24,000 nucleotides of DNA from Rhizomicrobium sp. Its GTDB lineage: Bacteria; Pseudomonadota; Alphaproteobacteria; Micropepsales; Micropepsaceae. How positions within the stretch are numbered: position 1 is the first letter of the stretch; each line of letters begins with the position of its first letter. The stretch is taken from contig DATCOJ010000063.1 in assembly GCA_036564785.1 (NCBI GenBank), forward strand, positions 6,692 through 30,691, read 5' to 3'. The notes beneath the pieces were generated by a model. The model ran no database searches. It saw nothing but the letters and a program-made list of their open reading frames with translations, and was not told the DNA's origin. This document shows, in pieces, positions 2,244 through 22,919 of this stretch. The position numbers were made by a program, and so were the translations under genes.

Positions 2244-2463
2244 CCGCACGGCTACCGATTCGCGGCGTCCGCCCCGCGCAGGATTTGCAGTCCGGCAGGT
2301 CACCGACGCATGCATCATTATCTCTTGAAACAAACTGTTCCGATTGCGGCGGAGTCTTGTCGAAAACCTGTTCAGGCGCCCGAAGTTCTGTTACAAACAA
2401 AGCGTCGGAGAGGCGGCCAACTCGCAGTTTTGCGCACAGCCAATGCGAGAGCGGAGGAGAAGA

Positions 2464-3648
2464 ATGATGCATCGTTATCTGACTGCAGGCGTCCTGTCGG
2501 GCTTCATTGCGCTCGGCCTGGCGTCAGTCGCCAACGCGCAAGCGCCGCGCGTCGAGCGTTCCGGAAACACCTATCACATCGCGGCTTGCGGCATGGTCGT
2601 CGGACACGTGGCCCGCTGTCATGCGCGTATCGTGACCGACCAGACGGGCAAGATCAAATTCTCGCCCGCGGGAAAGCCGCCGGTCTCCGGCTACAGCCCC
2701 GCCAATCTGCGCGATGCCTACAAGATCACCGGCTCGGGCAGCTCGTCCACCATTGTCGCGATCGTGGACGCCTATGGCTACAACAATGCGGAATCTGATC
2801 TCGGCGTCTATCGCGCGCAGTTCGGCCTGCCCGCCTGCACCACCGCCAACGGCTGCTTCAAGAAGCTGAACCAGAGCGGACAGCAGGGCAACTACCCGCC
2901 GCAGAACACCGGCTGGGCGCAGGAATCCGCGCTCGACCTCGACATGGCGAGCGCCATGTGTCCCAACTGCAAGATCTACCTGATCGAGGGCACCTCGGCG
3001 ACGTTCGCCAATCTCGCGGCGGCGGAGAACACGGCTGCGGCGCAAGGCGCCCACGCCATCAGCAACTCCTATGGCGGCGGTGAATCCGGCTCGCAGAGTT
3101 ACGAGTCGGCGTACAACCATCCCGGCATCGCCGTGACGGTGAGCTCGGGCGACAGCGGCTACGGCGTGGAATTCCCCGCCTCCTCGCCACACGTGACCGC
3201 GGTGGGCGGCACGCATCTGGTGACGGCCGGCAACAGCCGCGGCTGGACGGAGACCGTGTGGTCGGGCGCGGGCAGCGGCTGCAGCACGATCTACGCCAAG
3301 CCCAGCTGGCAGACCGACAGCGGCTGCTCGCGGCGCACCGTGGCCGACGTTTCCGCGGTGGCCGACCCGAACACCGGCGTTGCGGTCTATGGACCGACCA
3401 GCCGCAATCGCTCGGGCTGGCTCGTCTTCGGCGGCACCAGCGTGGCAGCGCCTCTGATCGCCGGTGTCTATGGCGTCAATGGCGGTTCGGTGAACTACGG
3501 CAGCGATCCCTATGCGAACACCTCGGCGCTGTTCGACGTCACCTCCGGCAGCAACGGCAGCTGCGGCGGCTCGTATCTGTGCACCGGCAAGGTCGGCTAT
3601 GACGGCCCGACGGGGCTCGGCACGCCGAACGGCTCGAGCGCGTTCTGA
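2464..3648 (+). CDS. Secreted S53-family (sedolisin/kumamolisin-like) serine-carboxyl peptidase, paralog 1 (394 aa)
   Basis: GGAGGAG (2452-2458) precedes ATG 2464. The signal peptide is MMHRYLTAGVLSGFIALGLASVANA|Q. S53 hallmarks are present in order: GYSPANLRDAYK, QESALDLDM (catalytic Glu/Asp), SNSYGGGE, SSGDSGYG (oxyanion Asp), FPASSPHVTAVGGT, RRTVADVSAVADPNTG, GGTSVAAP (nucleophile Ser) and GYDGPTGLGTPNG. Confidence 0.8.
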   Translation: MMHRYLTAGVLSGFIALGLASVANAQAPRVERSGNTYHIAACGMVVGHVARCHARIVTDQTGKIKFSPAGKPPVSGYSPANLRDAYKITGSGSSSTIVAIVDAYGYNNAESDLGVYRAQFGLPACTTANGCFKKLNQSGQQGNYPPQNTGWAQESALDLDMASAMCPNCKIYLIEGTSATFANLAAAENTAAAQGAHAISNSYGGGESGSQSYESAYNHPGIAVTVSSGDSGYGVEFPASSPHVTAVGGTHLVTAGNSRGWTETVWSGAGSGCSTIYAKPSWQTDSGCSRRTVADVSAVADPNTGVAVYGPTSRNRSGWLVFGGTSVAAPLIAGVYGVNGGSVNYGSDPYANTSALFDVTSGSNGSCGGSYLCTGKVGYDGPTGLGTPNGSSAF

Positions 3649-3677
3649 GGCTCCAAGCCTGAGTTGAGATTTGTGAA

Positions 3678-3716
3678 TCGTCCCGGGCGGGAACCCTCGC
3701 CCGGGACGAATTCTTT
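3678..3716 (+). terminator. Rho-independent terminator after peptidase paralog 1
   Basis: The stem pairs 3678-3691 with 3696-3709 (tcGTCCCGGGCGGG / CTCGCCCGGGACga, one G.U pair). The loop is AACC, followed by aTTCTTT. It lies 30 nt after the stop codon. Confidence 0.65.
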
Positions 3717-3826
3717 CAGCGGGCCGGCTCGCACGAGCGGAACGCGCCTCAAGCCGACTGCTTCCGAGGCTTGACGCAATCTGCTAGAAGGCCAATCCGC
3801 ACAAGGGGCATCAAGGGAGGGACTCA

Positions 3827-5011
3827 ATGTCACGATTTTCAAGCGGCGGCATTCTGGCGGCGCTGATCGCGCTCGCCATGGCGCCAAACGCCAATGCGCA
3901 GACGACACGCGTGGAGCGCTCCGGCAACACCTATCACAAAGCTGCCTGCGCTCCCGTGGTGGGAGATGCGGCGCGCTGCCATGCCCATGTGGTGACCGAC
4001 CGCGCCGGGCATCTGATCGAAGGCCGCTTCCCGCCCATCAGCGGCTATGCGCCGGCCGACTTGCGCGACGCCTACAAGATCTCCGCCACGGGCACTTCCT
4101 CGACCATCGTCGCCATCGTGGACGCCTTCGGCTACGACAATGCCGAGGCCGACCTCGCCGTCTATCGCGCGCAATGGGGATTGCCCGCCTGCACCACCGA
4201 CAATGGCTGCTTCAAGAAGCTCAACCAGAAGGGCCAGCACAAGAACTATCCGCCGCAGGACATCGGCTGGGCCGAGGAATCCGCACTCGATCTCGACATG
4301 GCGAGCGCCATGTGCCCGAACTGCACGCTCTATCTTGTCGAAGCCGACAGCAATTCCTTCACCCATCTGGGACGGGCGGTGGACACCGCCGCCAGGCTCG
4401 GCGCCCACGTCATCAGCAACAGTTATGGCGGCGGCGAGCATCGCGGCACCCGCGACAAGCTTCACTACTACGACCATCCGGGCATCGCGGTCCTGGCCAG
4501 CACCGGCGATTCCGGCTTCGGCGCGCAGTCTCCCGCCGACATGCCGACCGTAATCGCGGTGGGCGGCACTCATCTGGTGCGCGACACCAGCGACCGCGGC
4601 TGGGGCGAGACGGTGTGGCACGGCGCCGGCAGCGGCTGCAGCCGCTTCCTCGACAAGCCGGTGTGGCAGGCGGACAAGGGCTGCCACAAGCGCACCATCG
4701 GCGACGTGTCGGCGGACGCGGATCCGGCGACTGGCGTTGCGGTGTACGGCCCCAATTCGTCCGGCATTTCGACCTGGCTGAAATTCGGCGGCACCAGCGT
4801 ATCGGCACCGTTGGTCGGCGGCATTTTCGGTGCCAATGGCGGCGCAGTGGATGCGGCCAGCACCATCTATGCCGATCCGGGCGAGCTGTTCGACGTCACC
4901 TCCGGCAACAACGGCACCTGCGACCCGGCGTACCTTTGCACCGGTGAAGTCGGCTACGACGGGCCCACCGGCCTGGGCACGCCGAACGGCATCGGCGCCT
5001 TCGGCAACTGA
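3827..5011 (+). CDS. Secreted S53-family (sedolisin-like) peptidase, paralog 2 (394 aa)
   Basis: GGGAGGG (3815-3821) precedes ATG 3827. The signal peptide is MSRFSSGGILAALIALAMAPNANA|Q. The same motif series as paralog 1 is present: EESALDLDM, SNSYGGGE, STGDSGFG, VIAVGGT, GGTSVSAP and GYDGPTGLGTPNG. In an 83-aa stretch aligned by eye (SSTIVAIVDA... to ...YL[IV]E) I count 67 identical positions. Confidence 0.8.
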   Translation: MSRFSSGGILAALIALAMAPNANAQTTRVERSGNTYHKAACAPVVGDAARCHAHVVTDRAGHLIEGRFPPISGYAPADLRDAYKISATGTSSTIVAIVDAFGYDNAEADLAVYRAQWGLPACTTDNGCFKKLNQKGQHKNYPPQDIGWAEESALDLDMASAMCPNCTLYLVEADSNSFTHLGRAVDTAARLGAHVISNSYGGGEHRGTRDKLHYYDHPGIAVLASTGDSGFGAQSPADMPTVIAVGGTHLVRDTSDRGWGETVWHGAGSGCSRFLDKPVWQADKGCHKRTIGDVSADADPATGVAVYGPNSSGISTWLKFGGTSVSAPLVGGIFGANGGAVDAASTIYADPGELFDVTSGNNGTCDPAYLCTGEVGYDGPTGLGTPNGIGAFGN

Positions 5012-7173: not shown

Positions 7174-8177
7174 GCATCGATTTCGTGCCGCTGTGGACCG
7201 CTATCCTCGCCGCCGGCGTGTTCCTCTACGTGCTGCTGGACGGCTTCGACCTCGGCGTCGGCATCCTCTATCGCTTCGCGCCCGACACCAATGCGCGCAA
7301 CCTGCTGATGAACTCCATCGCCCCGGTGTGGGACGGCAACGAGACCTGGCTGGTGCTGGGCGGCGTGGCGCTGCTGGCGGCCTTCCCGCTCGCTTTCGCC
7401 ATCATCATGCCGGCGGTCTATTTCCCGGTGGCGATCATGCTGCTGGCGCTCGCCTTCCGCGGCGTCGCCTTCGAGTTCCGCTTCCGCGATACCGAGCGGC
7501 GCACCTTCTGGGACCATGCCTTCACCAACGGCTCGCTGGTGGCGACCTTCGCGCAGGGCATCGTGCTCGGCGCTTTTATCCAGGGCTTCCAGGTGGAGGG
7601 GCGTCACTTCACCGGCAGCTCGCTCGACTGCTTCACGCCGTTCTCGCTGTTCACCGGCGCGGCGCTGGTGTTCGGCTACGGCTTGTTGGGGGCCGGCTGG
7701 CTGATCCTCAAGACGGAAGGCGAGCTGCAGAGCCTGGCGCGGCGCTGGGGCCGCTGGTGCTTCCTCGGCACCCTGATCGCGGTCGGCATCGTCAGCCTGT
7801 GGACGCCGCTGATGGACCATGAGATCGCGCAGCGCTGGTTTGCCTGGCCCAACATCCTGTTCCTGGCGCCGGTGCCGGTGGTGACCGCGCTGCTGGCGTG
7901 GCTGGAATGGCGCTCGCTGAACAATCCGCAGGCCGAGTTCGCGCCGTTCCTGTGGGCGATCCTGCTGTTCGTGATGTCCTATCTCGGCATCGCCATCAGC
8001 CTGTGGCCGATGATTGTGCCGCACCGCTATACGTTGTGGCAGGCCGCCTCATCGCCCGACACCCAGGCCTTCATGCTGGTGGGAACGGTGTTCCTGCTGC
8101 CGGTGATCCTGATGTACACGGCGTGGTCTTATTGGGTGTTCCGCGGCAAGGTGAAGGCCGATATCGGCTACCACTGA
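7170..8177 (+). CDS. cydB: Cytochrome bd-type ubiquinol oxidase subunit II (335 aa)
   Basis: An ATGA overlap with the cydA stop (7170-7173) couples the two genes. The sequence begins MSIDFVPLWTAILAAGVFLYVLLDGFDLGVGIL and includes APVWDGNETWLVLGG. It is a typical polytopic CydB. Confidence 0.9.
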   Translation: MSIDFVPLWTAILAAGVFLYVLLDGFDLGVGILYRFAPDTNARNLLMNSIAPVWDGNETWLVLGGVALLAAFPLAFAIIMPAVYFPVAIMLLALAFRGVAFEFRFRDTERRTFWDHAFTNGSLVATFAQGIVLGAFIQGFQVEGRHFTGSSLDCFTPFSLFTGAALVFGYGLLGAGWLILKTEGELQSLARRWGRWCFLGTLIAVGIVSLWTPLMDHEIAQRWFAWPNILFLAPVPVVTALLAWLEWRSLNNPQAEFAPFLWAILLFVMSYLGIAISLWPMIVPHRYTLWQAASSPDTQAFMLVGTVFLLPVILMYTAWSYWVFRGKVKADIGYH

Positions 8178-9427: not shown

Positions 9428-10837
9428 ATGACCACAGCGGAGTCCGCTGACACGTCCGAGCGCGCCAAGCGCGACACCCGCTTCCTCGGCCATCCCGTCG
9501 GGCTTGGCTGGCTGTCGGCCTCCGAATTCTGGGAGCGCTTTTCCTATTACGGCATGCAGACGCTGCTGGTGCTCTATCTCACCCACTACCTGCTGCAGCC
9601 CGGCCAGATCGAGCAGGTGTGGGGCTTCGATGGGTTCCGGCGGTTCCTCGGCTGGCTCTACGGCGCACAGTCGACGATGGCGCTGGCTTCCAACACGGCG
9701 CAGCTCTATGCCGCGCTGGTCTACGTGACGCCGCTGGCCGGCGGCTTTCTCGCCGACCGCCTGATCGGGCGCACCACCACCGTCACCCTCGGCGCCACAC
9801 TGATGGTCATCGGCACCTTCCTGCTGGCGCTCAATTCGACCTTCCTGCTGGCGCTCATGCTGCTGTTGTTCGGCGTGGGCTGCTTCAAGGGCAATATCGC
9901 CAGCCAGGTGGGCGACCTCTACCGCATCGACGATCCGCGCCGCGCCGACGGATTCCAGATCTACTTCCTGGGCATCCAGCTGGCGGTGATCATCTCGCCC
10001 TTCGTCTGCGGCACCTTGGGGCAGCGGGTCGACTGGCATCTGGGATTCGTCGCCGCCGGCGTGGGCATGGTGCTCGGCTTGGCCATCTACCTCACCGGCC
10101 GGCGCACCTTCCCGCCGGAGCCGCTGCGCAAGAAGGGCGACCATGTCGAGCGGCCACCGCTCACCGCGCGCGACTGGAAGGCGGTGATCCTGCTGGTGGC
10201 GCTGCTGCCGGTGCTGGCGCTCTCCATCGTCGGCAATCAGGAGATTTTCGACGCCTATCTGGTGTGGGGCGAGAAGGCGTTCCAGACGGTGTTCTTCGGC
10301 TTCAACATGCCGATCACCTGGCTGGTCTCGCTCGACGCCTTCGTCAGCACCGTCACCATGATCGGCGTAATCGCCTTCTGGCGCTGGTACGGCAGGCATT
10401 GGAAAGAGCCCGACGAGATCACCAAGATCGTCATCGGCGTGGCGATCAGCGCGACGGGGCCGCTGGTGCTGGCCGGTTGCGCGGCGGTGGCGAAGTCCAC
10501 GGGCCATCCGGTGCCGCTCTATTGGGCGCTGGGCTTCCACATCCTGAACGATGTCGGCTTCGCCAACGTGCTGCCGGTGGGACTGGCGCTCTATTCGCGC
10601 GCCGCGCCGAAAGGCCTCGGCGGCATCATGATCGCCGTCTACTACCTGCACCTGTTCTTGGGCAACCTGCTGACCGGCTATCTGGGTGGGTTGCTTGGAA
10701 CCATGCCCGACGCCACGTTCTGGCTGATGCATGTGGCGCTGATGGCGATCTCCGCCGCGATCCTTCTCGTCGTCCGCATTGCCTTCGCCCATCTGGTAGC
10801 GCCGACCAAGGCGGACGTTCAGAGTCCGAACGGATAG
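9428..10837 (+). CDS. Proton-dependent oligopeptide transporter (POT/PTR2 family MFS), 469 aa
   Basis: ORF 9353..10837 (+); ATG 9428 is preferred (GTG 9416 is possible). The PTR2 signature is GLGWLSASEFWERFSYYGMQTLLVLYL, followed by ADRLIGRTTTV and 12 or more hydrophobic helices. Confidence 0.85.
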   Translation: MTTAESADTSERAKRDTRFLGHPVGLGWLSASEFWERFSYYGMQTLLVLYLTHYLLQPGQIEQVWGFDGFRRFLGWLYGAQSTMALASNTAQLYAALVYVTPLAGGFLADRLIGRTTTVTLGATLMVIGTFLLALNSTFLLALMLLLFGVGCFKGNIASQVGDLYRIDDPRRADGFQIYFLGIQLAVIISPFVCGTLGQRVDWHLGFVAAGVGMVLGLAIYLTGRRTFPPEPLRKKGDHVERPPLTARDWKAVILLVALLPVLALSIVGNQEIFDAYLVWGEKAFQTVFFGFNMPITWLVSLDAFVSTVTMIGVIAFWRWYGRHWKEPDEITKIVIGVAISATGPLVLAGCAAVAKSTGHPVPLYWALGFHILNDVGFANVLPVGLALYSRAAPKGLGGIMIAVYYLHLFLGNLLTGYLGGLLGTMPDATFWLMHVALMAISAAILLVVRIAFAHLVAPTKADVQSPNG

Positions 10838-10872
10838 GTCTCCGGCGCCGCCGCGCGGTTCCGGCAAAACAG

Positions 10873-10908
10873 AACGGCCGGGCGCCAAACCGGCACCCGG
10901 CCGTTTTC
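10873..10908. terminator. Bidirectional terminator hairpin between the convergent POT transporter gene and a secreted-protein gene
   Basis: A 10-bp stem pairs AACGGCCGGG (10873-10882) with CCCGGCCGTT (10896-10905). T4 follows on the + strand and CTGTTTTG follows on the - strand. Confidence 0.6.
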
Positions 10909-10926
10909 GGTGTCAAACGCGCGTCG

Positions 10927-11355
10927 TCAGCAGGTCACGTTGAGATGAAAGCGGTAGTCGGCAGGCGTCAAAGTCGCGGTCAGGAAGGTGGCGACGAAGA
11001 CGCCATTGGCGACGCCCTTGCGGCGCTGCACCACGATGAACCCCGGCACAACTTTGCTTTGCGCCTTGTGGCCGGCGATGGTCGCCGTGTAGGCGCACTT
11101 GCCCACGCCGCTGTTGAAGTCCACCTCATATTGGCCCTTGGCGAGATGCAGAGCGGCGGAGACGTTGCGGCCGCGTTCCAGTTTGCCGCTTGCGCCAATC
11201 ACGGCCCAGCCGCCTTGGCCGGCGGGCTCCTGACCGTCGGCGGCGTTCGCGGTCGAGCCGGCAGCCGCCGGCGGCTGTTCATCGCTTGCGGCGATTGCAG
11301 GAATTGCGGCGAGCGCCAGGCACGCGGCGGCGCCGAACAAAGCATTGCGATGCAT
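10927..11355 (-). CDS. Secreted protein of unknown function (142 aa)
   Basis: ORF 10927..11427 (-). The preferred start is M25 (rc ATG 11353-11355) with GAGGAG 6 nt upstream. The signal peptide is MHRNALFGAAACLALAAIPAIA|ASD. A low-complexity A/G/P linker precedes a beta-rich body with two Cys (GKCAY and the C-terminal VTC). Confidence 0.65.
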   Translation of the reverse strand: MHRNALFGAAACLALAAIPAIAASDEQPPAAAGSTANAADGQEPAGQGGWAVIGASGKLERGRNVSAALHLAKGQYEVDFNSGVGKCAYTATIAGHKAQSKVVPGFIVVQRRKGVANGVFVATFLTATLTPADYRFHLNVTC

Positions 11356-11565
11356 GACTATCTCCTCGATCCCTTCGACAGCCGCACGAGACCCCGGTTG
11401 CCGTTCGTCTCTGCAAGCAATCGGCAAGAGTAGCGTTCCGTCACAATGAAAATCGCGGTTAGCGAATGCCTAACCGCGAAGTTACAGCCCAATCGAAGCA
11501 AGTGCCGTCGCGCGGGAGATTTCCGGCTTTGCGCGAGGCCGAAGGGCCGCCTATATGCTGACGTC

Positions 11566-13452
11566 ATGGCCGATCGCCAATCGAGGAGCGAAAGCGAGGC
11601 GGCGCCGCTGAAGGGGCCGGCGCGCATCGCTGCATACCTGAAGACCCTGCCCGACGCGCCCGGCGTCTACCGCATGATGGATGCGGCAGGCGCGGTGCTC
11701 TATGTCGGCAAGGCCAGGAGCCTGAAGAAGCGGGTGACGGCCTACGCCAAATCCGGCGGCCATACCGAGCGGATCGCGCGGATGATCGCCGAGACGGCGG
11801 AGATGCTCTTCATCACCACGGCGTCCGAGATCGAGGCGCTGCTGCTGGAATCCAACCTGATCAAGCGGCTGAAGCCGCGCTACAATGTCTCCTACCGCGA
11901 CGACAAATCCTTCCCCAACATCCTGCTGCGCGAGGACCACCAATTTCCGCAGCTGTTGAAGCATCGCGGCGCCAAATCGACCAAGGGAATCTATTTCGGA
12001 CCCTTCGCCAGCGCCGGCGCGGTCAACCGCACGCTCAACACCTTGCAGCGCGCCTTCCTGCTGCGCTCCTGCTCGGATTCGGTGTTCGAATCGCGGACCC
12101 GCCCGTGCCTCTTGTTCCAGATCAAGCGCTGCAGCGCGCCCTGCACCCAGCGCATCGACCAGGCCGGCTACGGCGAGCTGGTGCGCGAGGCGGAGCTGTT
12201 CCTCAACGGCAAGAGCCGTGCGGTGCAGGACATTCTGGCCAAGGACATGAATGCGGCCTCCGAAGCGCTCGATTTCGAGCGGGCGGCGCGCTACCGCGAC
12301 CGCATCCGCGCCATGAGCCACATCCAGCTGCACCAGGGGATCAACCCGACCACCTTCGCGGAGGCCGATGTGTTCGCCGCCTTCAGCCAGGGCGGCGAAA
12401 CCTGCATCCAGGTGTTCTTCTTCCGCGCCGGGCAGAACTGGGGCAACCGTCCCTACTTCCCGCGCCACCCCCGCGAGCTCTCGGTCGAGGAGGTGCTCGA
12501 ATCCTTCGTCGGCCAGTTCTACGACGAGCGCGAGGCGCCCAAGCTGATCCTGCTGTCGCATGAGATCCCAAACGGCGCGCTGCTCGCCGAGGCGCTGTCC
12601 ACACGGCAGAATTTCAAGGTCGAAATCGCGGTGCCGCAGCGGGGCGAGAAGCGCGAAATCATGGACATGGCGCTGCAGAACGCGCGCGAGCAACTCGGCC
12701 GCCGCCTCGCGGAGAACTCCGCGCAGCGCGAATTGCTGGAGGGCGTGGCCGACGCCTTCGGGCTGGAGGCGCCGCCGCGCCGCATCGAGGTCTACGACAA
12801 CTCCCACATTTCGGGCACCAATGCGCTCGGCGCCATGATCGTGGCAGGGCCGGACGGCTTCGAGAAAGGTGAGTACCGCAAATTCAACATCAAGTCGGCG
12901 GAACTCGTGCCCGGCGACGACTACGCCATGATGCGCGAGGTGCTGACGCGCCGCTTCTCGCGCCTCATCAAGGAGAACGAAGCGGACGAAGCCAAGGCCA
13001 AATGGCCGAACGTGGTCTTGATCGACGGCGGACCGGGACAGCTGGCGATCGCCTGCCAGGTGTTCGCCGATCTGGGCGTGGAGGACGTGGCGCTGGTCGC
13101 CATTTCCAAGGGTCCGGACCGCGATGCCGGCCGCGAGCATTTCTACCTGCCCAAGCGCGAGGCCTTCCGGCTCGATCCCAAGAGCCCGGTGCTCTACTAC
13201 CTGCAACGCCTGCGCGATGAGGCGCACCGATTCGCCATCGGCAGCCACCGCAAGAAGCGCTCCAAGGCGATCGGGGCCAATCCGCTGGACGAAATCGCGG
13301 GGGTGGGCTCCAGCCGCAAGCGGGCGCTGCTGCAGCATTTCGGCTCGGCGCGGGCGGTGGCCGGGGCGAGCCTCACCGATCTGGAATCGGTCGGCGGCGT
13401 CAGCCGGACGCTGGCAAAAAAAATCTACGACTTCTTCCACGCTGGCGGCTGA
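11566..13452 (+). CDS. uvrC: Excinuclease ABC subunit C (628 aa)
   Basis: ORF 11446..13452 (+); ATG 11566 is preferred. The GIY-YIG domain is present ([26 protein letters not shown]...YNV). The UVR motif is [13 protein letters not shown]. The C-terminal HhH segment is [21 protein letters not shown]. Confidence 0.92.
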
Positions 13453-13473
13453 GCGGGTGTTACACTAGACTCC

Positions 13474-14127
13474 ATGTTTCGGCTGCCGAACATCATTACC
13501 GTCGGGCGAATCGCTCTCGTACCGGTCTTCGCCCTCACCTTCGCCCTGCCCGGCACGGCGGCGCGGCTCACCGCCTTCGTCATCTTCTGCATCGCGGGCC
13601 TCAGCGACGCTTTCGACGGCCTGGCGGCGCGCAAGCTCAACGCCGGGAGCGATTTCGGCCGCATGCTCGATCCCATCGCCGACAAGATCCTGGTGGCGGT
13701 GGCGCTGATGATGCTGGTGGCGGAAGGCAACATCCAGCAGTTCAATCTCGATCTCACGCCTGGCTCCGGCCTGCGCAGCCTGCTCAAGCTGGTGCCGGCG
13801 CTGGTGATCCTGGCGCGCGAAATTCTCGTTTCGGGCCTGCGCGAATTCCTGGCCGGCGCCGCGGTGAGCATTCCCGTCACCGCCGTGGCCAAGGCCAAGA
13901 CCACAATCCAGATGATCGCAATCGGCGCCATGATCCTCGATCCGCTGGCGTGGCAGTGGCTGCCGGGCCCCCTCGGCCTGACCTATAGCAGCATCGCCTA
14001 TGGCGGGCTGTGGCTGGCCGCGGCGCTGACGGTCGCGACCGGTTATGCCTATTTCCGCGCCGGGCTCGCCCATCTGCATCCGAAACGTGCGCGGGCAGCC
14101 GAGCGCCGCGCCGGAGAGACCGCGTGA
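13474..14127 (+). CDS. pgsA: CDP-diacylglycerol--glycerol-3-phosphate 3-phosphatidyltransferase (217 aa)
   Basis: The CDP-alcohol phosphatidyltransferase motif is DAFDGLAARKLNAGSDFGRMLDPIADK (D-x2-DG-x2-AR...G-x3-D-x3-D). The protein is polytopic. uvrC-pgsA adjacency is common in alphaproteobacteria. Confidence 0.88.
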   Translation: MFRLPNIITVGRIALVPVFALTFALPGTAARLTAFVIFCIAGLSDAFDGLAARKLNAGSDFGRMLDPIADKILVAVALMMLVAEGNIQQFNLDLTPGSGLRSLLKLVPALVILAREILVSGLREFLAGAAVSIPVTAVAKAKTTIQMIAIGAMILDPLAWQWLPGPLGLTYSSIAYGGLWLAAALTVATGYAYFRAGLAHLHPKRARAAERRAGETA

Positions 14128-14375
14128 CCTTGCTCTATTTCGCCTGGGTCCGGCAGAAGATCGGGCGCAGCGAGGAACGGCTGGTTCTCCCGGAAGGCGT
14201 TCGCACGGTGGGCGATTTGCTGGCGCATCTCGGCGCCCGCGGCGGCGGCTATGGCGAAGCCTTCGCCGATACGTCGCGGCTGCGCGCGGCCCTCAACCAG
14301 GCACATGTCGGCCTCGACGCCGTTGTGCGCGACGAGGATGAAGTCGCCTTCTTTCCGCCGGTGACCGGGGGATGA
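14124..14375 (+). CDS. moaD: Molybdopterin synthase sulfur-carrier subunit (83 aa)
   Basis: GTG 14124 overlaps the pgsA stop (GTGA). The ubiquitin-like small protein ends in ...FFPPVTGG, the obligatory C-terminal Gly-Gly. An ATGA overlap links it to moaE. Confidence 0.85.
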   Translation: MTLLYFAWVRQKIGRSEERLVLPEGVRTVGDLLAHLGARGGGYGEAFADTSRLRAALNQAHVGLDAVVRDEDEVAFFPPVTGG

Positions 14376-14821
14376 GCGCGCGCATTCAAGTGCAGACCGA
14401 CGACTTCGACGCCGGAGCCGAAATCGCGACGCTGGCAGAGGCCTCCGGCGGAGTCGGCGCGGTGGCGAGTTTCGTCGGCGTGGTGCGCAGCACAGACGGC
14501 GTCACCTCCATGACCCTGGAGCATTATCCCGGCATGACCGAGCGGGAGATCGCGCATCATGTCGCGGAGGCGCAGGCGCGCTGGCCGCTGCTCGGCCTCA
14601 CCGTCATCCATCGTATCGGCAAACTCGCGGTCGGCGACGCCATCGTGTTGGTCGCCGCGGCTTCGGCGCATCGCCAAGCCGCCTTCGCGGCATGTGAATT
14701 CCTGGTCGACTACCTGAAGACCCGCGCGCCGTTCTGGAAGCTGGAGGAGCGCGGCGGCAACACCGATTGGGTCTCAGCCCGCGCCGAAGACGACGACGCA
14801 GCCGAGCGCTGGCGACGATAG
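14372..14821 (+). CDS. moaE: Molybdopterin synthase catalytic subunit (149 aa)
   Basis: GAVASFVGVVR...LEHYPGMTE...IHRIGKLAVGDAIVLVAAASAHRQAAFAACEFLVDYLKTRAPFWK is the typical MoaE pattern. Confidence 0.9.
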   Translation: MSARIQVQTDDFDAGAEIATLAEASGGVGAVASFVGVVRSTDGVTSMTLEHYPGMTEREIAHHVAEAQARWPLLGLTVIHRIGKLAVGDAIVLVAAASAHRQAAFAACEFLVDYLKTRAPFWKLEERGGNTDWVSARAEDDDAAERWRR

Positions 14822-14832
14822 AAGGGGCGAGC

Positions 14833-17097
14833 TCAGGCGACCTGCCGAACGATGCGCGCCAGCGCCGCGTTCTCTTCCGAGCCTGAGAGGGCTTCGATGA
14901 TCTCGCGCGGCTCGCTGGCGGCGCTGCGCGACAATTGGAGCAGCAGCCGGCAGAGCTGGTACTTGAACAGGAACAGCCGGATCGCGCGCGGGCTTGCGCG
15001 GCGGCCGCTTTGCGACAGGCATTTGGCGACCTGCTCGCGCAACAGCGCAATCTCGCTGTCGACGAAACGCAGCGCCGAGCCGGAAAGCTTCGGCATTTCC
15101 TGAGTCGTGGACGTTTCGCCGGTAAACGCAGCGCCTTCGCCCCGGATGTGCTTTGGCGCCTTGTTTTCCCGCGGCAGTTGCGGACGCGGCGTAGACGGCT
15201 CACCTTCTTGCGCTTCGGGCTCCGGCACTCGCGCGACGAAGCGCTCCATCAGATCGCTCACCTCCTCCGGGGTCAGCGCCGGCAGCCGCAAATGGCACGC
15301 GAACAGCTTCTCGACATGTTCCTGCACGATGCCTTCCGCCGTAAAGTCGCCAGACTCCTTTTTTATGAGCTCGGAGAACTTGGTCAGGATGGCGTTCTTC
15401 AGGATGTCTTCGTCGACCAGCATCACGACCTGGACGCGCTTCTCAATCTCGTCGTCCTCAAGCAGGAGCTTGACCGCTTCGGCGATCTCGATCACCTCCG
15501 AGGGGCTGCAACGATCGAGGTCGTCGACGACGAGCAAAACCCTGTCCGGCCCGTCGGCGGCAGCGCGCAGGACGGCGAAGACCAGCACGACGAGCGAGCC
15601 CCAGACTGCGAAGCCCGCGGCATACAGCAACGCGTCCGCGGACGGCACGGCCATCATACGCCACAGCCATAACGCGGCGAACGCGGCGAGGCCGATCAAG
15701 CTCAAGCCCAGGGCGCCATTCGAGACCCGATCGGCCGGCGCCTCGGCGTCGTGGGCGACGAACGTGTGCTCGCGCGGCGACGGGATCCAGCTGACCAGCA
15801 GCGCACGAAGATCGTCGCCTACGAGCGCCTGCGGGCCGAGACGTTCGGCATGGCGCCCAAGCGTGGCATAGCGCGCGGTGAAGGCATGAACCGCTTCGAG
15901 CCCGCGCTCCGCCGTTCCCGATCCTACGATAAGGCCGCCCAGTCCCAGCGCGCTGACGCCGATCGCGAAGACTTGCCATAGCGGTTCGCGGACCGGAACG
16001 ACGAACAGGCCGAGCAGCAGCATGTCGAGCATGAGCAGCCAATAGCCGCGGCGCGCGACGCCGGTCTGCACCGCCAGACGAAACTTCTCGCGCAGCTTCG
16101 CGTGCATCGCGGGACGCGCAATCGACTGATAGAGGAACACCCAGGATTCCGGCGGGCGGCGATATTTCCAGGCGCTATACCAGACGACCTTGTAGTGGAG
16201 CTGGTCGAAATCGTCGCCTTCGACGCGATAGCCGCGGGCCGCCATCGCCATCTCGTATTGCTTCGGGTCCTCGAGCAAGGGCGTCAGCCGCCGCACCAGC
16301 CGCGTCTTGCCGATGCCCCACGGCCCGAAGAGACCGAAGCAGAACTCGCCGATCGCCGTGCGGAAGATCGTCGCAAGTGTCGTCGCATAGACATCGACGC
16401 TCGACGAAAGCTGAGCAGGATCGTCGGGATCACGGTCTATGTGGGTGCGCAGATCGGGTCGGGCTGGCTCCGCAGCTGGCGTCGATTCGTTAGTCGGTCG
16501 CCGCGCGTCATCGGCGACTGGTGTCACAGCATCATCGTCGTCGCCGACCGGGTATGGTAACAGGCTGCCTGGAGAGATGTCGATTCTGCGCAGTCTCCCC
16601 TGCAGCGCAGCCGAACGGTAGTGCAGCACCGAGTACAGCAAATCCATGGCGCCGATAATCGGCGGAAGCCAACTCTCCACAGCAAGACGCAGGGATTCGC
16701 TTGGCACAACCCGGCGGGCTTCCTTCTTTTCACGCACATTGGTCGGCAAGGATTCGGTCACGTAGTATTCGCGGATGAGCCGTTCCAGCTGATGCCGGTG
16801 CGGTTCAATGTTTCTGAGATGATATCGCGTGAAGCGGCGCAGTTCGGCCCTGTCCGCCGAAACATCCACCAGGACATGGCCTTCCTTCATCATTGTAGCC
16901 GCGGCCAGGAAGATGCCGGTGCACGAGACCTCGTAATTTCGATCGCGCTTTCGCGTCGCCAGAACGGATGCCCATTCCACCAGTGAGGCGGCCAACGGCG
17001 TCAGCGTGTGCTCGGCGAACAGCGCACGCATTTCCGCCGAGCTGAGCGACGGCATTGCCGGTTCGCCGCCACCCTTCATCCCGCCAGCCTCTGACAT
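14833..17097 (-). CDS. KAP-family P-loop NTPase with a 4-TM insertion in the NTPase domain and an unassigned N-terminal domain (754 aa from ATG 17097; the maximal ORF reaches TTG 17118, 761 aa)
   Basis: Walker A is GPWGIGKT (rc of 16303-16326). Four hydrophobic helices (about 15568-16047) lie between the Walker motifs. Walker B is LLVVDDLDRC (rc of 15508-15537), the family-typical DDLDRC. The C-terminal SPRAIRLFLFKYQLCRLL (14944-14994) resembles the conserved KAP tail. Start choice: ATG 17097 (GGGGGAAG upstream) or ATG 17079 (GAGG 8 nt upstream); 17118 is TTG with no SD. Confidence 0.8.
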   Translation of the reverse strand: MSEAGGMKGGGEPAMPSLSSAEMRALFAEHTLTPLAASLVEWASVLATRKRDRNYEVSCTGIFLAAATMMKEGHVLVDVSADRAELRRFTRYHLRNIEPHRHQLERLIREYYVTESLPTNVREKKEARRVVPSESLRLAVESWLPPIIGAMDLLYSVLHYRSAALQGRLRRIDISPGSLLPYPVGDDDDAVTPVADDARRPTNESTPAAEPARPDLRTHIDRDPDDPAQLSSSVDVYATTLATIFRTAIGEFCFGLFGPWGIGKTRLVRRLTPLLEDPKQYEMAMAARGYRVEGDDFDQLHYKVVWYSAWKYRRPPESWVFLYQSIARPAMHAKLREKFRLAVQTGVARRGYWLLMLDMLLLGLFVVPVREPLWQVFAIGVSALGLGGLIVGSGTAERGLEAVHAFTARYATLGRHAERLGPQALVGDDLRALLVSWIPSPREHTFVAHDAEAPADRVSNGALGLSLIGLAAFAALWLWRMMAVPSADALLYAAGFAVWGSLVVLVFAVLRAAADGPDRVLLVVDDLDRCSPSEVIEIAEAVKLLLEDDEIEKRVQVVMLVDEDILKNAILTKFSELIKKESGDFTAEGIVQEHVEKLFACHLRLPALTPEEVSDLMERFVARVPEPEAQEGEPSTPRPQLPRENKAPKHIRGEGAAFTGETSTTQEMPKLSGSALRFVDSEIALLREQVAKCLSQSGRRASPRAIRLFLFKYQLCRLLLQLSRSAASEPREIIEALSGSEENAALARIVRQVA

Positions 17098-17158
17098 GCT
17101 TCCCCCGCCAGATCCCAAGCTCAGCTTAGAGTTGCGGCAGCTAAGCGCAAGAGACGCT

Positions 17159-18055
17159 TTAGAGCCTGACCTCGCTCACGGAGGCGCGGACTTCGGCCGC
17201 GTAAGCGTTCATCATCGCCTCGCACATCTGGCCCGGGGCGAAATTCCAGCGCCCGATCTGGCGCACCGGCGTCACTTCCGCCGCGGTGCCGGTGAGGAAG
17301 CATTCGGAGAAACCTTCCAGCTCGTCCGGCTGGATATGACGCTCGATCACCGGAATCTGCCGCGCCCGCGCCAGCGCCATCACCGAGCGCCGCGTGATGC
17401 CGTCGAGGAAGCAGTCGGGCGTCGGCGTGTAGAGCTTGCCGTCGCCCACGAAGAACACGTTGGCGCCGGTCGCCTCCGCCACGTAGCCGCGATAGTCGAA
17501 CATGATGGCGTCGTGAAAGCCGTCGGCTTCCGCCTGGTGCTTGGCGAGCGTGCAGATCATGTAGAGCCCGGCCGCTTTGGACTTGGTCGGGGCGGTGTCC
17601 GGCGCCGGCCGTTTCCAGTCGGAAATCGTCAGGCGGATGCCCTTGAGCTTCTCGGCCGGCGAGAAATACGAGGGCCAGCGCCAGACCGCGATGGCGATGT
17701 GGACGCTGGAATGCGGCGCCGCAACGCTCATCTGCTCGCTGCCGCGAAACACCACCGGCCGCACGTAGCCGTCCTCGATATTCTGGACCCGCGCCGCCTC
17801 GTAGCAGGCGTCACTGATCTGCTGCTCGGTGAAGGGAATGGTCATCCCGAGGATGCGGGCCGATTCGAACAGCCGCGCGGTGTGCTCCGCGAGCTTGTAG
17901 ATGCGTCCCGAATAGATGCGCTCCCCCTCGAAGCAGCTGGAGGCATAGTGCAGCCCGTGGGTCAGCACATGGGTCTTGGCCTCGCGCCAGGGCACCAGCT
18001 TGCCGTCGTACCAGAGCGAGCCGTCGCGGTCGTCGAAGGGGATGATGTCTGCCAT
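17159..18055 (-). CDS. ilvE: Branched-chain amino acid aminotransferase, class IV (298 aa)
   Basis: AGAGGA lies 5 nt before the rc ATG (18053-18055). MADIIPFDDRDGSLWYDGKLVPWREAKTHVLTHGLHYASSCFEGERIY...KAAGLYM...GTAAEVTPV is the typical IlvE pattern. Confidence 0.9.
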   Translation of the reverse strand: MADIIPFDDRDGSLWYDGKLVPWREAKTHVLTHGLHYASSCFEGERIYSGRIYKLAEHTARLFESARILGMTIPFTEQQISDACYEAARVQNIEDGYVRPVVFRGSEQMSVAAPHSSVHIAIAVWRWPSYFSPAEKLKGIRLTISDWKRPAPDTAPTKSKAAGLYMICTLAKHQAEADGFHDAIMFDYRGYVAEATGANVFFVGDGKLYTPTPDCFLDGITRRSVMALARARQIPVIERHIQPDELEGFSECFLTGTAAEVTPVRQIGRWNFAPGQMCEAMMNAYAAEVRASVSEVRL

Positions 18056-18085
18056 AGTATCCTCTGGTAAACGCGCGAGACCGCC

Positions 18086-18109
18086 GGATGAGGGCGGCTT
18101 GCCTCATCC
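18086..18109. promoter_or_regulatory. Inverted repeat GGATGAGG-N8-CCTCATCC in the divergent ilvE/MarR intergenic region; candidate operator
   Basis: Read directly: perfect 8-bp arms at 18086-18093 and 18102-18109. The repeat lies 25 nt upstream of the MarR-family start (18134) and 31 nt from the ilvE start. Confidence 0.3.
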
Positions 18110-18133
18110 CGCGCCCGAAGTTAGGACTGTCGC

Positions 18134-18622
18134 ATGCCCAAATCCGCAGCAAGACCTGCCGGGTCTGCCTTATATCTTCGGGATGAAGAGCTTAGGCAAG
18201 GCGTCCGACTCCTGTTCCTGGCCTACCTCGATCTCTTCGACCGCGGGGGCGAGGCGCCGGCCGCGGCCAGGCTGGGCAGCGCCCACCGGCGCGCGCTTTA
18301 TTTCATCGGGCGGCGACCCGGGATTTCCGTGGCCGAACTGCTGGAAATCCTGAAGATCACCAAGCAAAGCCTGGGCCGTGTGATCAGTGAGCTGATCTGC
18401 AAGGGTCTCGTGGAACGCAAGCCTGGCCTGCGCGACCGGCGCACGCGCCAACTCAAGCTGACCGCCAAGGGCGCGGCCATGGATCAGGCCATCTGGAAGA
18501 TGCAGCGGCCGCTGATCGCGCGGGCTTGCCGCCGCGCCGGCGCCGAGGCGAGCGCGGGCTTCCATCGCGTGTTGCGGGCGCTGGCGGGCGAGCCGGACGC
18601 CGACAAGCGGAAGCTGCCGTGA
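18134..18622 (+). CDS. MarR-family transcriptional regulator (162 aa)
   Basis: AGGA lies 7 nt before ATG 18134. The winged-HTH region is ALYFIGRRPGISVAELLEILKITKQSLGRVISELICKGLVERKPGLRDRRTRQLKLTAKG. Confidence 0.8.
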   Translation: MPKSAARPAGSALYLRDEELRQGVRLLFLAYLDLFDRGGEAPAAARLGSAHRRALYFIGRRPGISVAELLEILKITKQSLGRVISELICKGLVERKPGLRDRRTRQLKLTAKGAAMDQAIWKMQRPLIARACRRAGAEASAGFHRVLRALAGEPDADKRKLP

Positions 18623-19323
18623 ACGCCGGCGCGCCCGGCGTCGAGAGCCCGCATCTGCTGGTGGTCGATGACGACGAGCGGCTGCGCGCCCTGCTGCAGC
18701 GCTATCTCTCGCAGAACGGATTCCGGGTGAGCGCGGCGGCGGACGCGGCCGAGGCGCGCACGCTGATGAAGAGCATGGCCTTCGATCTCCTGATCGTGGA
18801 CGTGATGATGCCGGGCGAGACGGGGCTCGATCTCACCCGTTCGGTGCGCGGCCAGTCGCAGGTGCCGATCCTCATCCTGACGGCGCGTGGCGAGCCGGAG
18901 GACCGCATCGCCGGGCTCGAGCACGGCGCCGACGATTATCTGCCCAAGCCATTTGAGCCGCGCGAACTGGTGCTGCGCTGCGGCGCGCTGCTCAGGCGCG
19001 CTGCGCCGCCGGTGCAAGCCCATCGCGAAGTGAAGATGGGCGAAGCGGTGTTCGATCCCGATCGCGGCGAACTGCGGCGCAAGGGCAAGCCGGTGCGGCT
19101 GACCAGTTCGGAATCCGCACTGCTGAAACTGTTCGCCGCCAATGCGGGACGGCCGTTCTCGCGCACCGATCTGTGCACCCGTCTCGGCGTGGCGCTGGAG
19201 CGCTCCATCGACGTGCAGGTGACGCGGCTCCGGCGCAAGATCGAGGAGGATCCCAAGCTGCCGCTTTACATCCAGACCGTGCGCGGCGTGGGCTATGTGC
19301 TCGTGCCGGACCGGGTGGACTGA
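18619..19323 (+). CDS. OmpR/PhoB-family response regulator (234 aa)
   Basis: GTG 18619 overlaps the MarR stop (GTGA). The receiver domain is HLLVVDDDERLRALL...DLLIVDVMMPGETGLDL...PILILTARGE...DDYLPKPFEPREL. The winged-helix output domain is SIDVQVTRLRRKIE...IQTVRGVGYVLV. Confidence 0.88.
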   Translation: MNAGAPGVESPHLLVVDDDERLRALLQRYLSQNGFRVSAAADAAEARTLMKSMAFDLLIVDVMMPGETGLDLTRSVRGQSQVPILILTARGEPEDRIAGLEHGADDYLPKPFEPRELVLRCGALLRRAAPPVQAHREVKMGEAVFDPDRGELRRKGKPVRLTSSESALLKLFAANAGRPFSRTDLCTRLGVALERSIDVQVTRLRRKIEEDPKLPLYIQTVRGVGYVLVPDRVD

Positions 19324-21676: not shown

Positions 21677-21764
21677 GGCGGCTCCTTTCGTAGCCGTTCT
21701 AGCGCGCGTCCGCGACCCAAGGATTGTAAAAATTTCGCGCTGCCGGAGAGGCGCGAGCAGAAGG

Positions 21765-22067
21765 TCAGTAGTCGCCTGCCTGGACGGCGTCGAGCTTGCT
21801 CTGAAGATAGGCGCGATGTTCGGGCGTCAGGGTCCCGCCGTCTCCGGCTTGGAGCTCCACGCCCTCGTTGCGCAGGTCCATGAGCGCGCGAAGCTTCCGC
21901 GTCGACTTCCGATGCGTCGTGTAAGTTCCGCCGTGAAACATCGGGTCCGTCGCCTGGGGCCCAAAGGATTGGGGAACCATGACGATGGCCGTGGCCTCGG
22001 CGGGCACGGCCCAGGCGAGGCCGCAAAGCGAGAGCGCGATCATCAGCGTTTTCATTCGGCGGTCCAT
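21765..22067 (-). CDS. Small secreted protein of unknown function (100 aa; the start may be M5 at 22055)
   Basis: The signal peptide is (MDRR)MKTLMIALSLCGLAWAVPAEA|TA. The mature part is hydrophilic. No convincing SD is present for either start. Confidence 0.5.
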   Translation of the reverse strand: MDRRMKTLMIALSLCGLAWAVPAEATAIVMVPQSFGPQATDPMFHGGTYTTHRKSTRKLRALMDLRNEGVELQAGDGGTLTPEHRAYLQSKLDAVQAGDY

Positions 22068-22094
22068 ATTCCAAATGAACCCGAGGCGCCAGTC

Positions 22095-22919
22095 CTAATT
22101 GGACAGCGGCACGTGCTGCAGATAAGGCCCGCGGCGGATTAGATATTCGGAGGGCGTCAGACCGGAGAATTCGCGGAAGTCGCGGATGAAATGCGACTGG
22201 TCGAAATAGCCGTGGCGCTCGACCATGTCCCCCCAATCGACCTGCGGCGCCTGAAAGATGCGCAGCAGCACGCGCTGGAAGCGGGTGACGCGCAGATAGA
22301 GCTTGGGCGTGAAGCCCACTTCGTCGGCGAAGAGCTTGATCAGCCGCTTGTGGCTGACGCCGGCTTCGGCGGCAAGCCTTGCGACGCTCGCCTTGTGCGG
22401 CGCGCGCGCGAAGCTCGCCAGCGCCTCTTCCACCACCGGATGTCGCACGAAGGCGCGCGGCGCGGCCGCGATCAGCGCGCGCTGCAAAATCTCGAACTTG
22501 TCCTCCGGCGTGGGCGCCTGCACCAGCCTCTGATGCAGCCGCTCCGCATCGCCGCCCCAGATGTCCGAAAGCGAGATATGCGCGTTCTGGAATTCGCGCG
22601 CCGGCGGCTTGAAGAAGGGAAAGGCACCGCCCGCGCGGAACTGCACCCCCATCATGTGCGGCTGATGGGCGTCGATGGCGAAGGCACTGGAATGCGTGCC
22701 GCAGAGCGCGATGCCCTTGAGCCGGCTCAGCGCCGCAAAGCGCTCGCCGCCGTACCAGGAAAGCTCGTCGCGCTTGAGATTGACCAGCAGGCCCACGCGG
22801 CCCGAGGCCATGATGGTGTCCTTGGCGTGCCCCGGCGCCTCGCCTTCCCAATACCAGAAGTTCTCGATGAAACGATCGAGCGGCGGCGGCGGAACGGCGG
22901 TGGCGTAGATTACGGGCAT
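22095..22919 (-). CDS. AraC/XylS-family transcriptional regulator (274 aa)
   Basis: ORF 22095..22952 (-); M12 (rc ATG 22917-22919) is preferred. The C-terminal double HTH is SVARLAAEAGVSHKRLIKLFADEVGFTPKLYLRVTRFQRVL...HGYFDQSHFIRDFREFSGLTPSEY. Confidence 0.8.
   Translation of the reverse strand: MPVIYATAVPPPPLDRFIENFWYWEGEAPGHAKDTIMASGRVGLLVNLKRDELSWYGGERFAALSRLKGIALCGTHSSAFAIDAHQPHMMGVQFRAGGAFPFFKPPAREFQNAHISLSDIWGGDAERLHQRLVQAPTPEDKFEILQRALIAAAPRAFVRHPVVEEALASFARAPHKASVARLAAEAGVSHKRLIKLFADEVGFTPKLYLRVTRFQRVLLRIFQAPQVDWGDMVERHGYFDQSHFIRDFREFSGLTPSEYLIRRGPYLQHVPLSN

Follow-up and report, generated by a model that had tools for sequence, protein, structure and literature searches.

A lone KAP-family NTPase with a predicted Clp-N-like head at a variable moaE-ilvE junction of Rhizomicrobium: a candidate single-protein immune sensor

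Introduction

The KAP family of P-loop nucleoside triphosphatases (NTPases) was reportedly delineated by Aravind, Iyer, Leipe and Koonin in 2004. The present work concerns a gene of this family that stands alone between moaE and ilvE in a 24,000-nucleotide stretch of a Rhizomicrobium sp. contig (assembly GCA_036564785.1, contig DATCOJ010000063.1, positions 6,692 to 30,691, forward strand), referred to below as the window. By analogy with the systems described in the next paragraph, we read the gene product as an accessory, strain-variable, single-protein immune sensor directed against phages or other mobile elements, and we put the probability of this reading at about 0.55.

Membrane-embedded P-loop NTPases are only just emerging as antiphage effectors: the mechanism of Tmn is the subject of a 2026 preprint, and the earliest direct evidence for lone KAP proteins dates from the same year. 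Tmn (Gao et al. 2020; Wu et al. 2023 and 2026), named as a KAP protein in 10.1101/2022.08.21.504612 and as a YobI-family protein in PMC13001434, is a single-gene P-loop NTPase that forms a decamer with two inserted transmembrane (TM) helices; its cytosolic arms sense phage RIIB, and its ATP turnover is coupled to the export of Mg2+ and to plasmolysis (PMC13001434). EF_KAP and three metagenomic lone KAP NTPases with TM segments have antiphage activity that is Walker-B-dependent and non-abortive (PLoS Biol 2026, PMC13552941). QatA, the KAP component of QatABCD, is a soluble protein that binds DNA and forms heptamers or octamers (PMC13279940). PifA, borne by the F plasmid, excludes T7-like phage when triggered by gp1.2 or gp10; the exclusion is membrane-associated and accompanied by membrane leakage. 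The protein is reported to be without TM helices (PMC13001434). An original prediction, made from the letters of the window without database searches, had named PifA as the only studied bacterial member of the family, a statement overtaken by the characterisation of Tmn, QatA and EF_KAP.

The window protein shares with the KAP family the Walker A and B signatures, the TM helices inside the NTPase domain and the fusion of variable accessory domains to the core. With four such helices by hydropathy, it falls within the membrane subset of the family, defined by two or four TM helices in the NTPase domain. It belongs to a distinct, tight subclade marked by a motif between the two TM hairpins, by a tail of the form SPRAIR.FLFKYQL and, in this sub-branch, by a Clp-N-like N-terminal domain; a literature search found no description of the linker motif, the tail or the Clp-N-like head. 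Tmn appears to be the best mechanistic analogue. Both are lone P-loop NTPases with TM helices after Walker A and with a cytosolic module, which in the window protein is a putative sensor. They differ in that the window protein has four TM helices, not two, and a predicted Clp-N-like domain in place of solenoid arms, and in that its gene is chromosomal whereas Tmn resides in the leading region of plasmids. The proteins of the EF_KAP class are likewise lone KAP NTPases with one or more TM segments, fused to a region without known domains. Theirs, however, is a C-terminal variable region (322 amino acids, aa, in EF_KAP) combined with one N-terminal and one intra-domain TM segment, and their genes lie in Firmicutes beside small serine recombinases; the window protein has an N-terminal variable module and four intra-domain TM helices, and no small serine recombinase is present in the window. 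PifA resembles it as a member of the KAP family, and QatA shares the KAP NTPase core and gave the best match in both PADLOC and NCBIfam. Taken together, the architecture of the window protein (Clp-N-like head, four-TM intra-domain insert, conserved tail) matches none of Tmn, EF_KAP, QatA and PifA. What is new here is an architectural variant within the KAP family and no new category.

Results

A KAP NTPase core with four predicted transmembrane helices

The Pfam KAP_NTPase profile (PF07693) matched the window protein with 79.6 bits against a cut-off of 20 (E 3.2e-22), which bears out the family assignment made in the original prediction. A deposited protein of 748 aa, 'P-loop NTPase fold protein [Rhizomicrobium sp.]', is 100 % identical to the product of the open reading frame (ORF). 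An exhaustive HMMER search over 1.84 billion representatives yielded 3245 relatives, of which 272 reached E<=1e-30, all counted as cluster representatives at 50 % identity. The Pfam match, the identical deposited protein and the HMMER relatives establish the ORF as a genuine gene, as opposed to a shadow ORF of high-GC DNA; the gene is real and intact.

Motif searches located Walker A, Walker B and the C-terminal tail exactly where they had been claimed (Table 1). Across 150 relatives, conservation of the Walker A residues G, W, G, G, K and T is complete or reaches at least 90 %, and residues D520, D522 and R523 of Walker B (748-aa numbering) are invariant. Residues 526-640 match positions 152-253 of the KAP_NTPase profile. 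Four hydrophobic helices, with Kyte-Doolittle 19-residue peaks of 1.9-2.2, occupy window positions 15568-16044 and all fall between Walker A and Walker B, in keeping with the claim of a four-helix insertion within the NTPase fold; the trait is found clade-wide. A whole-protein AlphaFold2 (AF2) model, of moderate confidence (predicted local distance difference test, pLDDT, 69), also shows the P-loop core with paired long helices. The predicted chain runs from a helical N-domain through a disordered linker to the P-loop core, then by way of two long helical hairpins to the second half of the NTPase domain, and ends with a low-complexity stretch and a helical tail. The presence of two hairpins would place the N-domain, both NTPase halves, the inter-hairpin linker and the C-terminal tail in the cytosol. 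The protein is thus predicted to be an inner-membrane-anchored, cytosol-facing KAP NTPase whose two hairpins separate Walker A from Walker B. The best-conserved motif of the clade outside the P-loop, RH.E.LG.QA.IG.DLRALL.GW.P, lies in the 68 residues that connect the hairpins; its residues L414, G415, A418, G421, D423, L427 and W431 reach at least 90 % conservation among 150 sequences.

Predicted fold of the N-terminal domain

About 185 residues ahead of the NTPase core had been called unassignable. This holds at the level of sequence, where neither Pfam nor the Protein Data Bank (PDB) provided a match, but not at the level of predicted structure, where the fold is Clp-N-like. Modelled alone with AF2, the N-domain reached a pLDDT of 82 and a predicted template modelling score (pTM) of 0.82. 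All of the top 50 Foldseek matches of this model in the PDB were N-domains of ClpA, ClpB, ClpC, ClpC1, Hsp104 or ClpT; the matches spanned about 155 of 180 residues, with probabilities up to 0.99 and with TM-scores of 0.45-0.65 for ClpC/ClpC1. In Clp ATPases this fold binds proteins or peptides, including substrates and adaptors. The likeness to the Clp/Hsp100 N-domain consists of an eight-helix, pseudo-twofold double repeat predicted for aa ~24-188; the two differ in that significant sequence similarity is absent and in that the domain is joined here to a KAP NTPase, not to an AAA+ unfoldase. A Pfam scan of the N-domain at E<=10 gave no match, Clp_N (PF02861) included. Searches of PDB sequences with a 25-sequence N-domain profile returned no Clp match and nothing significant, and nothing significant was returned with a full-length profile. 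Alignment with hhalign to ClpB N-domains from the fetched loci gave a weak match (P 0.0077, probability 5-13 %) in which the second repeat was aligned in the canonical register; with two sequences from outside these loci added, P was 0.0021. From the model, the N-domain appears Clp-N-like in fold and its homology to Clp_N is plausible. The segment that joins it to the P-loop core is probably disordered, as judged from its low model confidence.

A clade with exchangeable N-termini

The conserved core of the clade corresponds to residues ~200-735 of the query; ahead of it, members carry N-terminal extensions of anything between 0 and more than 800 aa. When the N-termini of the 150 best relatives were clustered by blastp, at least 15 classes plus 32 singletons emerged. 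The class of the window protein has 28 members, a class with sub-threshold Pfam Clp_N matches has 18, a Schlafen/AlbA_2 class has 14, and about a dozen further classes are small. Among 54 class representatives analysed with Pfam, all 54 contained KAP_NTPase, and the domains found in their N-termini comprised SLFN_AlbA_2, HTH_31, MIR, DUF1508, LRR, DUF4062, PNP_UDP_1, pentapeptide, TPR, glyoxalase, SIR2_2 and EAD1. By a crude hydropathy count over 134 members, four TM helices separate the Walker motifs in 81 and three do so in 40; hydrophobic segments elsewhere in the protein are lacking in 123 of the 134.

No partner gene accompanies this core. The neighbours of the window gene are housekeeping genes only, as the original prediction had stated, and among 63 genes neighbouring the relatives at 15 further clade loci no family appears more than twice, which argues against an obligate partner. 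The clade is modular, with swappable N-termini on a conserved four-TM NTPase core. A constant NTPase core with interchangeable sensor and effector heads is the pattern of conflict-system NTPases. With at least 272 representatives, a fixed four-TM core, a conserved linker and exchangeable heads, the clade offers a natural domain-swap series for the coupling of sensing to membrane output.

An accessory gene at the moaE-ilvE junction

To one side of the KAP gene are moaE, moaD, pgsA and uvrC; to the other lie ilvE, marR and the genes of a two-component system. This block (uvrC-pgsA-moaD-moaE / ilvE-marR-response regulator-histidine kinase) is widespread in Alphaproteobacteria. A moaE-anchored scan of reference genomes listed 80 loci, all from distant relatives (at most 62 % identity); the close relatives were identified by searching with the ilvE protein and then examining the contigs of the matches, except for two loci, L001 and L005, found earlier. 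Among the moaE loci listed, the moaE-ilvE gap measures between 113 bp and 4.4 kb, and none of the 80, which represent other Proteobacteria, has a KAP relative at moaE. Two loci, L076:10464-12707 and L028:2345-4588, hold in this gap a gene for a 747-aa CHASE2-adenylate/guanylate cyclase, similar in size to the KAP protein and unrelated to it.

The closest relatives were found to differ at this site. In L168 and L169 (97 % identity in UvrC, 99 % in the response regulator, 98 % in the histidine kinase), the interval is empty and ilvE and moaE overlap by 23 bp. It is also empty in L170 and L171 (Rhizomicrobium sp., UvrC 79 %) and in L173 (UvrC 83 %), and in L172 (UvrC 81 %) it contains an EamA gene only. 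An orthologue of the KAP gene, 46 % identical at the protein level, occupies the interval in L001 (UvrC 83 %); in L005 (UvrC 81 %) the interval holds an EamA gene and a type I-C retron RT-Toprim gene (RT, reverse transcriptase). Universal presence of an orthologue at this site, which the original prediction had named as a sign of a housekeeping membrane role, is therefore not what the relatives display.

Comparison with L168 by blastn allowed the inserted segment to be delimited: homology ends at window position 17210 and picks up again at 14818. At the empty sites, ilvE and moaE converge and share 23 bp (L168:7887-7909) or 14 bp (L170:7890-7903), so that any insertion must bring a new 3' end to one of the two genes. 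Over its last ~17 codons, ilvE of the window and of L001 is unlike the empty-site version. L001 shares the junction of the window, including the ilvE 3' end and a motif in the ilvE-KAP spacer. Direct or inverted repeats of at least 9 nt were not found at the insertion junctions. Between the window and L001, the flanking proteins are 60-83 % identical and the KAP proteins 46 %, a level at which synonymous sites are saturated. Within KAP, divergence is strongest in the N-domain (36 %) and in the TM3-TM4 hairpin (28 %), the latter being the most divergent segment of all. The database call for the L001 orthologue (L001:7635-10148, P0002), 715 aa from position 8001, is truncated N-terminally, the Clp-N-like domain being encoded upstream. 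Together, these data identify the KAP gene as accessory, fast-evolving and polymorphic for presence or absence among relatives.

Defence genes near the junction and near clade members

The retron gene of L005 (L005:12784-14534) lies within a moaE-ilvE gap at 10451-14704 and was recognised by PADLOC with 613 bits and a 70-bit tail. The 613 bits belong to a 490-aa ORF; a 93-aa ORF covers profile positions 472-559, and the two are separated by a frameshift at ~14253-14256, which reflects either a pseudogene or an error of long-read assembly. About 560 bp of non-coding DNA precede the retron (12222-12783) and could contain the msr/msd RNA; an Rfam search of the window and of the L005 gap returned nothing.

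A Schlafen-KAP relative (P0009; L004:1-18577) is part of a co-directional island with genes for an SNF2 helicase, an HNH nuclease, FRG, NOV_C and RadC proteins, a 1460-aa MmeI/Eco57I-like methyltransferase and several proteins without known domains. Another relative, P0007, lies among housekeeping genes. The 63 neighbours mentioned above include a type IIG restriction-modification enzyme, McrBC, TIR_2, a DpdE/ZorD-like SNF2 protein, a PD-T4-6 kinase and PDC-S68, as well as two resolvases and ordinary genes.

Assignment to named systems

Several described systems were considered for the window protein and rejected. QatA gave 35.8 bits in PADLOC and 45.4 bits with NF041923, whose cut-off is 600, and no qatB, qatC (QueC-like) or qatD (TatD) gene is adjacent. 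PifA gave 17.9 bits in PADLOC, with its best stretch at aa 526-550, and a tblastn search of 72,556 plasmids produced no PifA match at E<=0.01. The designation 'PifA-like' in the original prediction is consequently apt at the level of the KAP family and not beyond it, the specific match being confined to ~25 residues. Tmn was rejected by sequence, since a PADLOC scan of the window protein at E<=1 contained no Tmn family. RADAR (RdrA) was rejected on Foldseek values (E 0.12-1.6, TM-score ~0.2) and for want of a deaminase neighbour; a literature search found no link between RdrA and KAP.

Discussion

Circumstantial evidence strengthens a defence role for the window protein: the accessory status of its gene, a retron at the same junction in a relative, immune modules among the N-termini of the clade, relatives that reside in defence islands, and the precedent of Tmn and EF_KAP. 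Several observations weigh on the other side. The window protein scores below the threshold of every defence-system model in PADLOC and NCBIfam, and the window contains no other defence gene, integrase or transposase. The composition of the KAP gene is nearly native and not that of a recent foreign insert; its G+C content at third codon positions (GC3) is 0.78, compared with 0.79-0.90 in the neighbouring genes. PLSDB plasmids and INPHARED phages contain no member of the clade, and IMG/VR has three weak partial matches, so the mobility of the clade is not evident. Distant alphaproteobacteria hold non-defence cargo in the moaE-ilvE gap (CHASE2-cyclase, ECF sigma factor, dehydrogenase, EamA), which indicates an interval that is variable in general and not specific for defence. 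Finally, the Clp-N assignment derives from a predicted structure, with Foldseek E-values of 0.04-1, and the neighbour census derives from crude gene calls and has no background control.

Part of this evidence would suit an accessory membrane NTPase with a physiological role outside defence, an explanation that we consider rather unlikely. The protein could then serve a membrane complex as its NTP-dependent scaffold or regulator, as originally proposed for KAP proteins, or be a membrane-proximal sensor in protein quality control or stress whose Clp-N-like domain would bind unfolded, tagged or adaptor proteins. The Foldseek match fits the latter form, given that Clp N-domains bind substrates and adaptors. 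The nearly native composition, the housekeeping context in the window and at locus L003, the missing mobile-element signature and the non-defence cargo in distant relatives fit either form. This explanation is harder to reconcile with the absence of the gene in the nearest relative and several others, with the divergence of KAP proteins at a pace much faster than their flanks, with the recognised immune effector or sensor domains among clade N-termini, and with the defence islands of some clade members and the retron at the same site in L005.

It is improbable that the gene is the relic of a past mobile-element insertion without benefit to the host, either a neutral passenger or a selfish exclusion gene in the course of being lost. 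The patchy distribution with several empty sites and the GC3 value, lowest among the neighbouring genes, would be expected of such a relic, and prokaryotic KAP genes are said to have been often disrupted in the survey of Aravind et al. of 2004. Yet the ORF is intact (748-761 aa), the promoter-like motif upstream is conserved and there are no mobile-element remnants. Moreover, all clade-invariant residues are kept in both the window and L001 proteins despite 54 % divergence, which points to purifying selection.

A last alternative, that the gene belongs to the core housekeeping set and is functionally tied to ilvE or moaE, as in an ilvE operon, would account for the shared strand, the distance of 40-80 bp downstream of ilvE, the absence of a predicted terminator in between and the syntenic position in L001. 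The empty sites effectively refute it, since they occur in relatives whose UvrC is 79-97 % identical and whose ilvE and moaE genes abut or overlap. It is further at odds with the count of zero at the 80 moaE loci listed and with the conserved promoter-like element that KAP has of its own.

For the immune-sensor reading, Tmn, PifA, EF_KAP and STAND-type switches suggest a mechanism by analogy. The Clp-N-like domain would recognise a phage-derived or infection-induced ligand, and binding of this ligand would change the nucleotide state, conformation or oligomerisation of the NTPase ring. The conserved inter-hairpin linker would pass the change on to the TM hairpins, which would alter membrane permeability or ion balance and so arrest phage replication. 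We hold these steps with less confidence than the defence role as such. The putative Clp-N-like sensor directs attention to phage proteins, adaptor-like proteins and phospho-arginine as candidate ligands.

A wider proposal, put forward tentatively, is that the clade forms a distinct class of one-protein membrane immune sensors in which a Clp-N-like module for substrate recognition, or one of more than a dozen sensor or effector modules swapped in for it, gates an NTPase with a four-TM ion exporter or pore as effector, and that its members are exchanged among soil alphaproteobacteria at integrase-free hotspots of the chromosome such as the convergent moaE/ilvE junction, through homologous recombination via the conserved flanks. 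If the window gene does serve in defence, the locus would illustrate that such a gene can reside in housekeeping DNA without the marks of a mobile element; discovery methods based on islands would miss it there.

Gene start, promoter and other features of the window

The ORF described in the original prediction is present, with 761 codons at its maximum extent, but its TTG start is probably not the true one. A promoter-like element, TTGCGC-N16-TAAGCT, in the spacer between ilvE and KAP ends 5 nt upstream of this codon, so that ATG 17097 (754 aa) or ATG 17079 (748 aa, used in the database call) is the more likely start. The element, which a generic sigma-70 scan did not pick up, is conserved in L001 even though the KAP proteins are just 46 % identical. 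The stretch from ilvE to the KAP gene has no predicted terminator, and expression probably proceeds from the gene's own small predicted promoter in the 40-bp spacer after ilvE. The residue numbers suggested earlier for mutagenesis, K271, D532 and D533, apply to the 761-aa form only and become K258, D519 and D520 in the 748-aa form.

Table 1. Coordinates of the KAP gene, its predicted parts and its flanks in the window. Residue numbers refer to the 761-aa form.
Feature	Position	Strand	Remarks
moaE, convergent flank	14372..14821	(+)	stop 11 bp from KAP stop
Segment absent from L168/L169 (46 bp instead)	14819..17209		KAP gene, spacer and replaced last ~17 ilvE codons
KAP-family NTPase ORF, maximum extent	14833..17118	(-)	761 aa from TTG 17118
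Conserved C-terminal helical tail, including SPRAIRLFLFKYQLCRLLLQL and terminal QVA	14836..15093	(-)	59 % identity to L001 orthologue
C-terminal SPRAIRLFLFKYQL	14953..14994	(-)	motif search
C-terminal half of KAP NTPase domain	15235..15564	(-)	aa 519-628; best Pfam stretch
Walker B LLVVDDLDRC	15508..15537	(-)	aa 528-537
Predicted TM hairpin 2 (TM3 aa 469-489, TM4 aa 497-517)	15568..15714	(-)	hydropathy, AF2 model
Inter-hairpin linker, predicted cytosolic, motif RH.ERLG.QALVGDDLRALL.SWIP	15715..15921	(-)	clade alignment
Predicted TM hairpin 1 (TM1 aa 359-376, TM2 aa 380-399; 3-residue loop)	15922..16044	(-)	hydropathy, AF2 paired long helices
Walker A / P-loop GPWGIGKT	16303..16326	(-)	aa 265-272
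Low-confidence linker ending in conserved DLRTHIDRDPDDPAQL stretch	16405..16554	(-)	aa ~189-238; pLDDT <50 at model residues 176-225
N-terminal all-helical double-repeat domain, predicted Clp/Hsp100 N-domain-like fold	16555..17049	(-)	aa ~24-188 of 761-aa ORF
Promoter-like element TTGCGC-N16-TAAGCT	17123..17150	(-)	ilvE-KAP spacer; kept in L001 orthologous locus
ilvE (Aminotran_4), upstream flank, same strand as KAP	17159..18055	(-)	ORF list, homology

Elsewhere in the window, two further insertions or deletions relative to L168 were noted. At 10844-11596, a 166-aa ORF of unassigned function (10927-11427) stands in the window where L168 carries a gene for an erythromycin esterase; at 21736-22104, two hypothetical genes of L168 correspond to ~370 bp with a 100-aa ORF (21765-22067). 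The region 2344-5011 encodes a 434-aa protein without a Pfam or PADLOC match, followed by a divergent S8 subtilase (394 aa). In the Rhizomicrobium-like L172, a Gp49 (HigB-like) and HTH_31 pair, apparently a toxin-antitoxin module and absent from the window, is inserted beside proC (L172:3755-4362). Lastly, for the region 17976-19323, the mechanical ORF list gives overlapping frames for marR (18134-18622) and for the response regulator (18526-19323); the true start of the response regulator probably lies further downstream, at ~18640.

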